From assembly GCA_951406725.2 (NCBI GenBank), contig OX597817.1:128526001-128590000 (forward strand): a DNA stretch of 64,000 bases. Reading direction: 5' to 3'. Made by a program: the position numbers and the translations under genes. The notes beneath the pieces are model-generated. The model ran no database searches, was not told the origin of the DNA, and saw only the letters and a list, made by a program, of their open reading frames with translations. The stretch comes from Octopus vulgaris (Eukaryota). Shown here piece after piece: positions 2,481 to 48,610 of the stretch (its first letter is position 1; each line of letters opens with the position of its first letter).

Positions 2481-4345
2481 CAGGGGCATAACTACAGATG
2501 TATACTCACTCGACTTTGTTGCCTCATAACTTCCAGAAAAGGGATACTTTTTAACGAAACTGTCAACAAGTAATTGCTTAGATTGTGTAGACTGAGTGTA
2601 TGTAAAGATTTGTTGGAATTTTTTTCCGAGGGGTTGGGGAAAGGCGTTTCGGAAAATTCATACGACCCAACACTTAGGTGTGCTCATAACTTTCAGAAAA
2701 ACGGGTATTTTTTTAAAGAAATTTTATACAAATACCTTTCAAACATTGTAGATTACAATTACAAAGAAATCTTTAGGCGAAATTTTTTTAGCGGGCAGGT
2801 AGGGGAAGGAGTTTCTGGAAAACCGAGTTTCGGATCAAACGGCCCACATAAGTTGCAAGTTCTCTTTTTTGATGGGGATTTTTCCAATTTTTTGTTCCAG
2901 CATAGTCTTCGGAATGATGAGAGGTATCTTTTTACGAAAAAAAGAAAGATTTTGAAAATTTATAATCTTTTTTCACTCCTGCTACCCCCTCATAACTCCA
3001 GCCCGGACCGATTTTGGCTTTTTTCTCTTTTTTTTTTTCACTGCGCATTTAAAACCCGTGAGAGAAACATTTTTGGTTTTTAAAAAAATTGTTAATAATT
3101 TCAGAGCAAAATGTATGATATAAGAGAGATTTGGCTGTTGTTTCTAGCACATCCCAAGACCTCCTTCTAACATACATACATACATACTAATTATACTATC
3201 AAAATAAATCATCTTTCACATACCTCTTATTGAAATCACTCTGGATAAATCCCAGAAATAATCTTCTCAGGCTCTCTAATATTTTAGAATAATATAAATA
3301 GAAGCAATCGGGAGCAGGGAGTGGGGCTAAAAATATAAATTTTAAAGTTTTTCTTTTATATATATAGCTTATATGTGTTTATGGAGGAAAATATTGTAAA
3401 ACATAAGTACATATTTGAGTGAGAAGAAAACAAGGAGTTTGGCCTTGCGATGTGCTAGAAACAACATCAAAATCTCTCTTGAATCATTTTTTCCTCTGAA
3501 AAGATTAAATTATTACCATAAGGGACTAAAGCCATCTGAATATGGCTAGGGACAGGGCAGGGTGGTGGGGGTGTTACTGTTGCATTTAGCCCCAGGCGAA
3601 CATCAACGTCGCCAGATAGGCTTGACACCATCACGGCGTCTGTCCCTAGCCATATTCAGATGGCTTTAGTCCCTTATGTTATGGAGCAGTTACTGTCTAT
3701 ATCTCATTTAGAGAATTATTATTGCTGATTAAATTATTTTTTAACCGAAAAGGTTTCTCCCATGATTTTTAAGTGCCTAGTGAAAAAAAAAAAAATATAT
3801 ATATATATATTGGCCCAAATCGGCCTGGATTGGTGAGGGGGTGGCGGGAGTGAAAATTAATCACAAATTTTCAAACATTTTCTTCTTTTTTTTTCATAAA
3901 AAGATGCCTCCCATCATTTCGAAGACAGTGCTGAAAAAAATTGGAAAAAAATCCGTCAAAACGGAGAAATTCCAACTTAAGTTGGCCGTCTGATCCGAAA
4001 CACCGTTTTCCAGAAACTCCTCCCACCGCCCCCTTCCAAAAAAGTTTGCCTACAAATTTCTTTATAATCGTAATCGACACCTCTTGAAAGATATTTGTAT
4101 AAAATTTCATTAAAAGATGCCCATTTTCCTGAAAGTTATGAGGGGGAAAATGTCAGGCTCTGAGAATTTTGGGGAACTCATTTCCCCAACCCCTCGGGAA
4201 ATTTTTTTCCACCAAATCTTTACATACACTCAATCTACAGAATCTAAGCGATAATTTGTTGAAACTTTCGTTAAGAAGTATCCATTTTCTGAAAGTTATG
4301 CGGCAACAAAGTCGAGAGAGTATACGTCTGTAGTTACACCAATTC
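2481..4345. mobile_element. Fold-back DNA element with ~600-670 bp diverged terminal inverted repeats
   Basis: 2489-3085 is a diverged reverse complement of ~3738-4338, e.g. ACTCGACTTTGTTGCCTCATAACTT vs AAGTTATGCGGCAACAAAGTCGAG; 3122-3160 also pairs with 3441-3480; left end CAGGGGCATAACTAC. Confidence 0.8.
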
Positions 4346-4873
4346 TGGATTCATTTTAATATATTCTTGGTGAGCTGAGAGGTGGTTCACAAATCAGTTT
4401 TTCATGCTCTCCTAATAGATTGAGGTATATTCTAAATGGCTGGGGTTGAATATCACCTAATATCTGGTTGCTATTGATGCTAGCTAGCCGAGTTCTCTCT
4501 CTCACTCTCTTTCTCTCTCTTTCTCTCTCTCTCTCTCTCCCTCTCTATCAATCTAAAGAAGAACGCATGTATAGCAATATCAAAGACAATTTTTGAACTG
4601 GTGGAAATGGATACAAGACGATGTGTTGGGTCATGAAGTAAGACTCATTTTACGCTGCATCAGTTTATTCAGCTCAGAATCAGTACCTGTCTAGTGCTGG
4701 TGCAGCTCTCTCTTCCTCCAACACTCACAAAAAAGTGGGAGGGTCAAGAGTGTGTCTGTATCTGCTCGCGACTACATAGGCACCTAAAACAATTGGCGAA
4801 AACATAGTACATGCTACCAAACCATACGCATTCACGGATGACGGCTGATTGTTTCGTGTCGTCGGTAGTAGGT

Positions 4874-4920
4874 TAGTCTGTCCCCTCTGTGTTTAGCCCC
4901 TTGTGGGTAATAAGGAAATA
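4874..4920 (+). mobile_element. 47-bp 5'-truncated family-A SINE tail with 10-bp TSD
   Basis: Tail CCCCTCTGTGTTTAGCCCCTTGTGGGTAATAAGGAAATA between two GGTAGTAGGT (4864-4873 and 4921-4930). Confidence 0.8.
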
Positions 4921-5323
4921 GGTAGTAGGTAAATGAGCGAATGTTCTTTTTTCTTTTATTAACCCCATTAAAACAAAGATAGTTGAAGTGACAGGTGAAA
5001 TAGTTTCTATTTTATGGCTGTGACAGCAAGCTGTAGCTGTCATTGACATTGTTTTGTGTGTCAGTGTACTGGAGGATAATAGGGAAGAATAAAAAATTCA
5101 TAAGATATTTTTTTTAAAATCTTTTCAGAGGGTTCACACTAATTTCGAGTCATTTATCCTTTGTATATGTCAAGAGAATTCTCGTTCGTTTTATTTCATC
5201 CACAGTCTATAGCTGAAGAATCGAAGGCAAGTAAAAGAGGAAATAATGCAATTTGTTGCTTTGTGTAGTGTTATGCTGTCATTTTACTTTTTTTTCTTTT
5301 TGTGATTTATCTTGAATAAGACT

Positions 5324-6130
5324 TTTCTACTCTAGGCACAAGGCCCGATTTTTTTTTTGCGTATGGGAGTGAGGGAAGTCAATTAGATCAACTCCAGTAC
5401 ACGACTGGTACTTAATTTATCGACTCGAAAGAATGAAAGGCAAAGTCGACCTCGGCGGGATCTGAACTCAGAACATAACGGCAGATGAAATACCTATTTC
5501 TTTACTACACACAAGGGGCTAAACACAGAGAGGACAAACAAGGACAGACAAACGGATTAAGTCGATTACATCGTCCCTAGTGCGTAACTGGTAATTAATT
5601 TATCGACCCCGAAAGGATGAAAGGCAAAGTCGACCTCGGCGGAATTTGAACTCAGAACGTAACAGCAGACGAAATACGCTAAGCATTTCGCCCGGCATGC
5701 AAACGTTTCTGCCAGCTCGCCACATTAAAGAGAGTATTTTCTACTCTAGGCACAATGCCCGAAATTTTGCCTGGGGGACCAGTCATTTAGATGGACCCCA
5801 GTCTGCAACTGGTACTTAATTTATCGACCTCAAAAGGATGAAAGGCAAAGTGGACATCGGCGGAATTTGAACTCACAACGTAACGCCAGACGAAATAGCT
5901 ATTTCTTTACTACCCTCAAGGGGCTAAACACAGAGAGGATAGACAAGGACAGACAAACGGATTAAATCGATTATATCGACTCCAGTGCGTAACTGGTACT
6001 TATTTAATCGACCCCGAAAGGATGAAAGGCAAAGTCGATCTCGGCGGAATTTGAGCTCAGAACGTAACGGCAGACGAAATACGGCTACACATTTCGCCCG
6101 GCGTGCTAACGATTCTGCCAGCTCGCCGCC
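5324..6130 (-). mobile_element. Tandem of two dimeric family-A SINEs inside one 18-bp TSD
   Basis: Four copies of the core GTCGACTTTGCCTTTCATCCTTTCGGGGTCGATAAATTAAGTACCAG with alternating tails; TTTATCTTGAATAAGACT at 5306-5323 and 6131-6148. Confidence 0.9.
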
Positions 6131-47000: not shown

Positions 47001-47263
47001 AAAGAGAAAGTAGGAGAAAGTGTGGTGGTAATAGCAGGAGTAAACCACTTGAAATGAGAGAGGCAAATCGTAAAATATTGAGTTTTCTCGAATTTTTGCT
47101 TAATTGGGGGTCAAATTGAAAAAAACTTTATATGCCATGACCCAATGGAATCTACTTGGAAAAATCATAGGTAAATTCCAATTGAAGAAATTCTATATTG
47201 TAGAATTGTATTAAAAAGGAACATGGGAACAGGCAGAGAAAATCTGCCTTTTATCATAAGAGA
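44059..47263 (-). mobile_element. Internally deleted Helitron (rolling-circle transposon)
   Basis: Minus-strand 3' end: hairpin ACCGGGCAACGCCGGGT, then ATCTCTG-CTAG followed by T (CTAG at 44059-44062). Candidate 5' end A|TCTCTTATGATAAAAGGCAGA at 47263 with hairpin AGGCAGA/TCTGCCT. Encloses a PIF1 helicase. The 5' end is less certain than the 3' end. Confidence 0.8.
44252..45860 (-). pseudogene. Helitron PIF1-like helicase domain, one in-frame stop, Rep domain absent
   Basis: Walker A LNAPGGIGKT, ASSGIATTLLPGGRTAHS, WDECTM, GDFSQTLPV, NGTRL, FAMSINKSQGQT, QLYVGCSRV, TRNIVYNEVL*. The two track ORFs share a frame and are split by a TAG at 45476-45478. Confidence 0.92.
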
Positions 47264-47549
47264 TATGTGTGTGTATGTATGTGTGTTTGTGTGTGGTGTG
47301 CGTGTGTATATGTGTGCGTGTGTGTATGTATATCTATATCTTTATTTGATTATCTCTCTACCACCGCTTGACAAGCGGTGTTGGTGTGTTTGCATCACCG
47401 TAACTTAGGGGTTCAGCAAAAGAGACCAATAAAATAAGTACTGAGGTCAAATCATTCGGCTAAAAGTTTAAAGCAGCACCCCAGCGTGGCCACAGTCTAA
47501 TGACCGAAACAAGTAAAAGATATATGTAAATACATACATAATTATACAT

Positions 47550-47795
47550 GCAATAGGTGTATTCCTGATCACAAGATATCGATTTAGATTTCCTGACCAG
47601 CGACGCGTTGTGCTATTTGGGTAAAAGTCATCGTGTCACGTTGCTCAGACCCACTCACTTCTAGATGAGTATCTCTGTCATATACTGGCCTTCCGGGTGG
47701 GGAATGTCGGCCTGCCTGCCTAGCCAGTGGGGTGGCATCATTCGGAAGCTACCACAATGCGTGGCAGTGCATTGTAACTAGCGGTGTTTAACAAT
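47550..47795 (+). mobile_element. Degenerate SINE with family-C-like core and a different tail
   Basis: TCACGTTGCTCAGACCCACTCA core similarity. Confidence 0.45.
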
Positions 47796-48610
47796 ATATA
47801 TCTTTTTGTCTCCTCAATACAGTGATATATCTATACCTATCTATCGATCTATATATATGTATATATATATATATATATATATATGTGTGTGTGTGTATGT
47901 GTGTGTGTGTGTGTATATATATATATATATATATATATATATATATGTGTGTGTGTGTGTATATATATATATATGTATATATATAAATATATATGTATGT
48001 ATTTATAACGTAAAGTATACAAGCCATCTCAATATGGCTAACCACTAAGGGTGGGTGTTCCTGTAGCTTTTAGCCCCAGGAGATCATCGCCTCCAGCTGG
48101 CTTTAGGCACACTTTCTGTGCCCTATATATATGTATGTATATATATATATAATATATATATATATATATATATATATATATATATATATATATATATATA
48201 TATATATATATATATAAAGTTAATCCAAACAGAAAACAAAAAAGACAACAACGCAAGGATATATATATATATATATGTATGGGTACAGTACGTTACCAAC
48301 AGTAAACAAAATATGCACATATATAAACATATGTGTATATATACATTATAAATATATAAATATATGTCCTTTTTCTTTACTCTTACCTGTTTACTTGTTT
48401 CAGCGATTAAATTGCGCTCATGCTGAGGCACCGCCTTGAGGAACTTCAGTCGAATTGACCCAAGTTCCTTTTGAAGCTTCATACGTATGATATCGAACAA
48501 CTAAGTTTGCAGGGGTATAAATAAGCCGAGCCAACACCCCATCCCATATATATATGTATGTGTGTGTGTGTGTCTGTGTGTGTGTGTTTCTATTAAATTA
48601 TATGTGTGTA

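Follow-up and report, generated by a model that had tools for sequence, protein, structure and literature searches.

Four dispersed, diverged copies of a structured motif lie on the minus strand of a 64,000-nucleotide stretch of the Octopus vulgaris genome (the window, meaning the whole stretch that was analysed), and the question they raise is what kind of RNA keeps such a structure and to what end. A sequence-only reading had found in each copy a hairpin A followed by an AGCC...GGCU stem with a hairpin C, and all four copies were recovered where it had placed them (Table 1). A covariance model trained on 16 copies from three subfamilies, with the 3568-3643 type (copy 1) left out, gave 14 matches in the window at E<=5, four of which were strong: those of copies 2 to 4 and that of the held-out copy 1, at 40.6 bits, the fifth-best match reaching only 14.0 bits. 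Some details of the original description needed small corrections. Copy 1 has AGCC-UAUCU in place of AGCC-AGCU; the GGAAC variant does occur in copy 4 but is a private mutation of that window copy; and the pairing described for hairpin A of copy 3 holds apart from an A.C mismatch, likewise private. The copies are not separate elements that arrived at a motif independently: their subfamily majorities are homologous over the whole unit (53-92% identity in the shared region), and each window copy is a 5′-truncated piece of a different subfamily of one tandem repeat.

Table 1. Retrozyme-like arms and their predicted RNA features in the window. Unit positions are numbered from the hammerhead cut; percentages are identity to the subfamily majority, and bits are covariance model scores.
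Feature	Positions	Strand	Remarks
Copy 1, arm 1	3514..3640	-	Subfamily c1a, 362-nt unit, unit positions 52-178; 99%; starts at hairpin A and stops at first fixed end
Copy 1, arm 2, inverted, back to back	3640..3727	+	Unit positions 137-224; stops at second fixed end
Copy 1, hairpin A	3624..3640	-	
Copy 1, stem B, internal loop, hairpin C	3585..3622	-	Loop has a C-G pair and a U.U mismatch; includes conserved CCUGGGGCUAAA strand
Copy 1, helix D, 5′ strand	3573..3579	-	CAGUAAC, long-range; partner strand lies beyond first fixed end; here found on inverted arm only
Copy 1, hairpin E	3531..3546	-	GCCA...UGGC; invariant stem within helix D domain
Copy 2, single arm	23546..23789	-	Old subfamily c2, ~356-nt unit; 83%; TA repeat after end
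Copy 2, type I hammerhead, 3′ half	23761..23789	-	Read directly from sequence
Copy 2, motif, hairpin A to GUAAC, decayed	23646..23709	-	48.3 bits; hairpin A 23693-23709
Copy 3, arm 1	39270..39440	-	Subfamily c3, 350-nt unit; 92%; from hammerhead cleavage site to first fixed end, then TA repeat
Copy 3, arm 2, inverted	39440..39552	+	Unit positions 116-228; stops at second fixed end
Copy 3, motif	39318..39382	-	82.8 bits; hairpin A 39367-39382
Copy 4, single arm flanked by TA repeats	48007..48124	-	Subfamily c4, 353-nt unit, unit positions 57-174; 97%
Copy 4, motif	48057..48122	-	82.1 bits; hairpin A 48106-48122

The full unit, taken from tandem copies, is 349-362 nt long and non-coding, and no conserved open reading frame was found in it. 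A type I hammerhead lies ~50-60 nt upstream of the motif on the same strand, and its core and stems I-III could be read in all six full subfamily majorities, several subfamilies having variant cores. At locus L344, the Rfam model RF00163 (Hammerhead_1) matched once per unit (372-416 and 725-769; 32.2 bits, E 3.7e-5, just below the gathering score of 34), and the motif follows at 465-539 and 818-892; Rfam scans of the full units L047 and L027 missed the hammerhead. The motif had been thought to stand where sibling elements carry a hammerhead, whereas the same units carry both. The earlier remark that a hammerhead core is absent holds for the motif taken alone but misleads about the element: copy 2 retains the stem II 3′ strand, GAAAC, stem III, the cleavage site, and the start of the stem I 3′ strand, and the minus arm of copy 3 begins at the hammerhead cleavage site. 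Window copies are without a full hammerhead because it was lost by 5′ truncation.

The repeat is abundant and diverse. The core pattern had at least 8,286 exact matches genome-wide against 2 for a control pattern, a second exact pattern had 4,953 against 0, and another had 372, in c1 types only. Diverged subfamilies were sampled through sequence patterns, with the first 100 places of each pattern listed; at least nine were recognised, and further ones probably exist. Metazoan non-LTR retrozymes are described, in the parts of the papers compared, as tandem non-coding repeats whose units of 150-450 bp each carry one type I hammerhead (PMC7229834; bioRxiv 10.64898/2026.07.22.740005), those of mussels having units of 350-390 bp. 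The octopus repeat resembles them in unit size, in its single hammerhead per unit, in its many dispersed copies, in its highly paired predicted RNA, and in having Penelope-like elements as proposed mobilisers. For published retrozymes, the sections compared report RNA, cleavage, and circles, whereas the octopus repeat is known here from sequence alone. We conclude that, judged by sequence and layout, the repeat superfamily is almost certainly an animal retrozyme and the motif a domain of it.

The motif is two arms of a predicted fold conserved over the whole unit. The fold, common to six subfamily majorities, runs from the hammerhead on a long stem through hairpin A, stem B/C, helix D, and hairpin F to a second fixed end; hairpin E and the first fixed end both lie within helix D. 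The earlier claim that the hairpins keep pairing while their sequence changes was borne out in wider alignments. Among 63 distinct rows, 96.3% of cells were paired, compared with 87.1 +/- 0.6 in shuffled controls, and double changes occurred at 11 of 15 pairs, compared with 6.3; for 24 distinct rows from loci outside the model, the corresponding values were 92.1% versus 83.5 and 9 of 15 versus 4.9. Standard pairs filled every cell of helices A, B, and C (120/120) and of D (56/56) in eight subfamily majorities. A tree-aware null applied to these majorities gave log10 P of -3.8 for A, -0.7 for B, -3.1 for C, and -1.9 for D, values that are optimistic because the helices were picked after the sequences had been viewed and the model alignments were fitted to the structure. 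GUAAC, initially described as an unpaired linker, is one strand of the long-range helix D, and its pairing with a downstream GUUAC is marked by three independent compensatory swaps in 147 copies (C-G 118 to U-A 14, U-A 126 to C-G 14, and A-U 127 to G-C 10). Folding of the c2 majority gave helix D a probability of only 0.14. Circular and linear folding returned identical helix probabilities, so folding added nothing on circularity. We conclude that helices A, C, and D covary and that stem B is backed by conservation but hardly by covariation.

Within stem B/C, the 3′ strand is nearly invariant while the opposite strand varies only in ways that preserve pairing, and the CCUGGGGCUAAA strand and the U.U mismatch are fixed in all eight majorities, save one A-to-C change in one of them. 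One strand that is invariant in a sequence-specific way could instead be a promoter or transcription signal acting at the DNA level, with the surrounding hairpins conserved for other reasons. The AGCCAGCUGG stretch of c2, c3, c4, and c6 resembles a tRNA A box when compared by eye, but it is altered in c1a, c1b, c1c, and c5 by exactly pairing-preserving changes, and no B-box-like stretch follows it. Moreover, wobble pairs in the eight majorities number 11 G.U against 0 A.C when read on the hammerhead strand. We therefore consider a promoter signal improbable. Sequence could also be conserved here by a short coding frame, the situation in Penelope pLTRs that extend over the start of an open reading frame: in c3, a frame of 45 codons opens at the hammerhead AUG and closes at the UAA of GGCUAA, c1a has one of 67 codons, and in an anole element the reading frame is described as beginning inside the hammerhead (PMC11167929, in the part compared). 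However, distances within the motif differ between subfamilies by non-multiples of three, the longest frames are unrelated, and substitutions follow base pairing. The frame-breaking indels largely refute coding, and we regard it as extremely unlikely. Readings of the motif as a SECIS element or a tRNA-derived SINE were dropped on sequence grounds.

One way in which the motif could serve the element is as a second, new self-cleaving or self-ligating ribozyme. It has conserved non-canonical elements (the U.U mismatch, a bulge, and AAA after the stem), the variant hammerhead cores of several subfamilies could be weak, and, as originally reported, the motif matches no known Rfam family: no model of a known small ribozyme, twister-sister included, matched over the motif, and the best 150 of the 325 matches in the Rfam scan of the window were all microsatellite or inverted-repeat noise. 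Every unit already has a hammerhead, however, and with it the main ground for suspecting a new self-cleaving ribozyme is gone. A second cut, placed between the hammerhead and the points where RT starts, would sever the unit-length template. Arms nevertheless cross the motif into whole upstream units, and 5′ starts show no sharp pile-up within it. Most conserved bases are paired, and GUAAC is both helical and variable (GUAGC, GCAAC). A relaxed HDV-like descriptor, run with no positive control, matched none of eight subfamilies, and models of twister, pistol, hatchet, hairpin, and HDV ribozymes found nothing at E<=10 in two full units, in scans that missed the hammerhead as well. We conclude that of the two roles first offered for the motif, self-cleavage and RT recognition, the latter is possible and a new ribozyme very unlikely.

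The arms of the repeat terminate in a regular pattern. Among arms ending in TA, 150 of 157 stop in two clusters, ~42-65 and 96-121 nt past AGUAAC, and 67 of 85 back-to-back pairs combine one end of each cluster. In contrast to these fixed 3′ ends, 5′ truncation points are scattered, and copies lie in tandem or back to back, anchored at the two ends. Of the 236 motif-spanning arms, a count inflated by design because loci were fetched with motif queries, 122 extend back past the position of a full hammerhead, the longest reaching 1,250 nt. Of 276 5′ starts, 19 fall within 6 nt of the hammerhead cut, about twice the uniform expectation but too biased by the choice of loci to carry weight. Consistent with the earlier description, the end is present as an inverted copy at copies 1 and 3, and copies 2, 3, and 4 end in TA-rich sequence. 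We conclude that two fixed 3′ ends and inverted, 5′-truncated arms in TA are a Penelope-type signature, in agreement with the earlier assignment to Penelope-type non-autonomous elements. In subfamily c7 the motif and both ends are retained, but TA follows only 1 of its 30 scored ends (~3 of which are copies continuing past the first end). As c7 lies mostly outside TA, the target is not set by the motif, and different enzymes may be involved.

The unit shares with the pLTR/tail of endonuclease-positive Penelope-like elements a minimal type I hammerhead with a palindromic stem III and the U3-A8 core variant, two RT start points 3′ of the ribozyme, inverted 5′-truncated arms, and TA/AT-rich targets, as these are given in the sections compared (PMC11167929, PMC8557442, PMC4209133). 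The octopus start points lie ~170-180 and 220-230 nt past the cut, 44-60 nt apart, whereas those of PAc are placed 85-92 nt past the cut in the part of the source compared (PMC11167929). Unlike a pLTR, the octopus unit has no open reading frame, and among the autonomous families examined no pLTR was found to carry the motif. Autonomous Penelope-like elements with intact-looking RT/GIY-YIG frames are present in many copies in the same genome, and the sequence-only reading had looked to a full-length element of this kind carrying the motif; none was found among the families examined, which were the top-scoring candidates out of thousands. These were two Hydra-like families, with frames of 717 and 727 aa; a family with two ORFs and a 781-aa frame, which we take to be Neptune-like; and several other GIY-YIG loci. 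Model or profile matches at them fell solely at separate retrozyme insertions. The Hydra-like name reflects a by-eye likeness to Hydra-1_Obim in the part of the PMC8557442 supplement compared, and Pfam assigned no family to the Hydra-like frame. The 717-aa element was considered as a partner because, by eye, its hammerhead seemed to take the place of hairpin C, but this found no support: its 3′ end has no model match, and its own two ends lie ~68 nt apart. The GIY-YIG frame beside the motif in L015 was a separate insertion, as were those in L256 and L308. GGGGCTAAA had 0 occurrences in the portion of the PMC8557442 supplement compared, where line breaks could hide one.

Alternatively, the motif may have no direct contact with RT and belong to the general architecture of the retrozyme RNA, serving folding, stability, proper exposure of the hammerhead and the RT start region, or the binding of a host protein (for instance a ligase or an export factor). 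Structure and covariation extend over the entire unit, the long stem on which the hammerhead is presented included. Nor is the motif the best-conserved part: invariant columns per 20 number 10-12 in the block between the fixed ends and 6-10 in the motif. Also in keeping with a structural role, no autonomous element sharing the motif was found in the families examined, c7 keeps the motif despite its other target preference, and PMC7229834, in the part compared, describes the known circles of retrozymes as highly self-paired. A structural role would nevertheless leave unexplained why the CCUGGGGCUAAA strand and the U.U mismatch stay fixed while their partner drifts by wobble changes, and we hold it possible but somewhat doubtful.

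We put at about even the chance that the motif contributes to a docking surface for a Penelope-like RT-endonuclease, which would bind there before it copies the RNA. Tandem arrays would be transcribed and cut by the hammerhead into monomers, perhaps then circularised. A Penelope-like protein would bind the folded domain and nick both strands of AT-rich DNA, and reverse transcription would begin at the two fixed points and give two joined arms; window copies without a full hammerhead would be those in which copying stopped short of it. In the sections of PMC11167929 compared, a purified Penelope-like protein reverse transcribes from two internal sites 3′ of the hammerhead that correspond to the genomic tail, and the 150 nt surrounding these sites are proposed to hold a protein-binding motif. 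The block between the fixed ends, at least as conserved and lying at the start sites, may be the real binding site.

LINEs and their SINEs have a common 3′ stem-loop, and the octopus motif is similar in being a conserved stem-loop near the start of reverse transcription in a non-autonomous element; it differs in belonging to another retrotransposon class and in that no partner sharing the structure was found here. No description of the motif or of cephalopod retrozymes was found in searches of the open-access literature. In the main text compared, papers on metazoan retrozymes give single-sequence folds and no conserved domain besides the hammerhead, whereas the octopus repeat yields, from at least nine subfamilies, a fold backed by covariation together with two fixed ends. 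More speculatively, and with rather low confidence, we propose that hairpin A, together with the bulged stem that holds the invariant CCUGGGGCUAAA strand and the U.U mismatch, could be an undescribed signal that recruits Penelope-like RTs in trans to a protein-free, probably circular RNA. Such a signal would need no shared end sequence, would serve both TA-targeting and non-TA-targeting (c7) enzymes, and would set both priming events at fixed downstream distances. A new ribozyme class, unlikely as it is, would have mattered more. For the recognition and copying of retrozymes, the literature compared proposes Penelope-like enzymes and does not name the cis signal. The octopus superfamily offers the comparative structure with which to approach that signal, in that its natural compensatory changes, invariant strand, and two mapped start points supply targets for mutation.

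The sequence-only reading placed four copies of a motif, comprising hairpin A, stem B/C and GUAAC, on the minus strand of the window, and all were there as described (table). A covariance model built from 16 copies representing the types of window copies 2, 3 and 4, with the copy-1 type held out, returned 14 window matches at E ≤ 5. The four copies scored 82.8, 82.1, 48.3 and 40.6 bits, the last being the held-out type, and the next match dropped to 14.0 bits. Because the four score far above that match, we conclude that the motif set in the window is real and complete. Throughout the 2.8-Gb genome, first-look searches gave 549 to 1,194 candidates per window copy, and exact core patterns gave 4,953 and 8,286 matches (reversed controls, 0 and 2). 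Full units, read from tandem copies, span 349 to 362 nt, are homologous end to end and form at least nine subfamilies (c1a, c1b, c1c and c2 to c7), with 53 to 92% identity among eight subfamily majority sequences over the shared region. That coding constraint conserves the motif is scarcely credible; no conserved open reading frame was found across units, and frame-breaking indels sit inside the motif.

Each full majority contains a minimal type I hammerhead whose stem III is palindromic. It shares its strand with hairpin A, and its cut site precedes that hairpin by about 50 to 60 nt. At locus L344, Rfam RF00163 matched once per 353-nt unit (32.2 bits, E 3.7e-5; gathering score, 34), and the motif begins 49 nt after the match; an Rfam scan of two other subfamilies did not pick up the hammerhead. 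The motif had been thought to stand where sibling elements carry a hammerhead, but both occur in one unit. Copy 2 retains the 3′ half of its own hammerhead, copy 3 starts at the cut site, and copies 1 and 4 both start at hairpin A. Given the full units and copies 2 and 3, we conclude that the motif occurs alongside the hammerhead and not in its place. Hammerhead cores differ (CUGAUGA, CCGAUGA, UUGAUGA, UUGACAA and others), and the U3-A8 core swap is known from Penelope-like elements (PMC4209133). Positions 3 and 8 vary in the superfamily (C-G, U-G and U-A) and position 4 is sometimes C; the variants at L344, L047, L092 and L168 form a natural series for tests of core tolerance.

Starting at the cut site, the unit opens with a long stem on which the hammerhead is presented. 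Hairpin A follows, then stem B, which contains a bulge, a C-G pair and a U·U mismatch, and then hairpin C. An AAA linker leads to helix D, within which hairpin E is enclosed, and beyond it lie hairpin F and further hairpins. Covariation of the hairpins, claimed from the window copies, was borne out by pairing counts above shuffled and by subfamily-level pairing. Among 63 distinct rows, 96.3% of cells were paired versus 87.1% shuffled, with double changes in 11 of 15 pairs, and among 24 distinct rows from loci outside the model, 92.1% versus 83.5%, with double changes in 9 of 15, in alignments fitted to the model and against controls that leave relatedness among rows in. At subfamily level, every cell held a standard pair, 120 in A, B and C together and 56 in D. 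A null placing the same number of changes on a tree gave log10 P values of −3.8 (A), −0.7 (B), −3.1 (C) and −1.9 (D), which are optimistic because helices were picked after inspection. GUAAC pairs with a GUUAC lying about 65 nt further downstream; among the 147 copies for which both strands were located, three separate swaps occur in this helix. Ensemble probability was ≥0.90 for A, B and C in all six full majorities and 0.89 to 1.0 for D in five of six. The 3′ strand CCUGGGGCUAAA is almost invariant, and its partner varies by wobble alone. On the hammerhead strand, the majorities hold 11 G·U and 0 A·C pairs, which fixes the RNA strand and upholds the minus-strand bias first seen in G-U pairs; that the motif is instead a DNA promoter is improbable.

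Distinct arms numbered 276; 157 end in TA, and 150 of those stop in two clusters, about 42 to 65 and 96 to 121 nt past AGUAAC (the fixed ends). Back-to-back pairs combined one of each end in 67 of 85 cases and one end twice in 2, with an unclassified end in 16. The 5′ starts of arms are scattered, and motif-spanning arms are over-represented because loci were fetched with motif queries. Two ends with inverted arms reproduce the tail and inverted-arm pattern of Penelope-like elements, as presented in PMC8557442. According to PMC11167929, the anole protein in vitro initiates reverse transcription at two internal sites located 3′ of the hammerhead, and these agree with the genomic tail. It nicks AT-rich DNA on both strands and depends on about 150 nt surrounding the start sites. 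In subfamily c7, motif and ends are as in the others, and TA follows 1 of 30 scored ends, about 3 of the 30 rows being copies that run past the first end. Subfamily c7 is dense near the start of contig C1 (L313-L342, G000:C1, first 6 Mb), where both fixed ends join non-TA sequence, unlike its sisters; its target preference has changed, perhaps along with the partner enzyme.

Candidate partners were two Hydra-like families, a two-ORF family and other GIY-YIG loci. At their ends, neither the motif model nor the whole-unit profile matched among the best 66 to 150 of 6,136 to 34,247 candidates per search, and all strong matches nearby within that set were separate retrozyme insertions. The two-ORF GIY-YIG retroelement (L298-L306, L311) is young, with a CCAAT-rich tandem 3′ region and 3′ ends about 900 to 1,200 nt after its 781-aa frame. 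Its hammerhead core is of the U3-A8 type, and its two ends, which lie in TA, are separated by about 40 nt; to the eye, the hairpin in its tail bears a faint likeness to hairpin F of the retrozyme, and neither profile nor model matched. We consider it a candidate retrozyme partner. The Hydra-like Penelope families are young with intact frames: one of 717 aa (L121-L150, L231-L260), its hammerhead core often CCGAAGA and its two ends about 68 nt apart, and one of 727 aa (L261-L267), with a hammerhead-like motif upstream of the frame.

Three of the four motif-less hammerhead-core matches in the window have a TA repeat within about 100 to 150 nt after them. At positions 32969-33130, a common SINE-like end, presumably resembling an octopus SINE, forms a near-perfect inverted repeat that causes a spurious MIR840 match. 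Related open frames at L084 (2086-2697, +) and L083 (2060-2581, +) lie beside c2 copies in a locally duplicated region of contig C29.

Motif copies, motif-less hammerhead-core matches and open frames in the window
Feature	Position	Strand	Basis
Motif copy 1 (c1a)	~3565-3640	-	covariance model
Motif copy 2 (c2)	23640-23712	-	covariance model
Motif copy 3 (c3)	39312-39385	-	covariance model
Motif copy 4 (c4)	48050-48123	-	covariance model
Hammerhead core, repeat without motif	15518-15540	+	sequence match
Hammerhead core, repeat without motif	23883-23908	+	sequence match
Hammerhead core, repeat without motif	40935-40952	-	sequence match
Hammerhead core, repeat without motif	40031-40067	-	sequence match
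Open frame, PIF1-type helicase-like (Helitron-like)	44255-46183	-	by eye
Open frame, LINE reverse transcriptase fragment	31413-32213	-	by eye
Open frame, mariner transposase fragment	17001-17426	-	by eye

Judged from DNA sequence alone, the repeat is a new animal non-LTR retrozyme because of its unit size, hammerhead, tandem layout and co-occurring Penelope-like elements, features shared with those described in PMC7229834 and bioRxiv 10.64898/2026.07.22.740005. Its layout, covariation, strand and fixed ends are established. Arrays would be transcribed and cut by the hammerhead to monomers, possibly circularised, as demonstrated with the retrozymes of coral, mussel and axolotl (PMC7229834). A Penelope-like protein would bind the folded domain and use the two nicked strands as primers at the fixed points, after which the two arms would be joined. 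We give about even chances that the motif docks this protein. A general structural or host-factor role is possible but somewhat unlikely, and higher conservation between the fixed ends (10 to 12 invariant columns per 20) than in the motif (6 to 10) counts against singling out the motif. The sequence-only proposal of a new self-cleaving motif fared poorly: a second ribozyme would be without motive since the unit already has its hammerhead, and we hold it very improbable. Another cut between hammerhead and start points would ruin the template, yet arms pass through the motif into upstream units. Rfam, named earlier as a check, yielded no family for the motif in the top 150 of 325 window hits or in scans of units, and no description was found in the open-access literature; Repbase, Dfam and paper supplements could hold these repeats. 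We conclude that the motif is a real, covarying, undescribed structural domain within a known kind of element.
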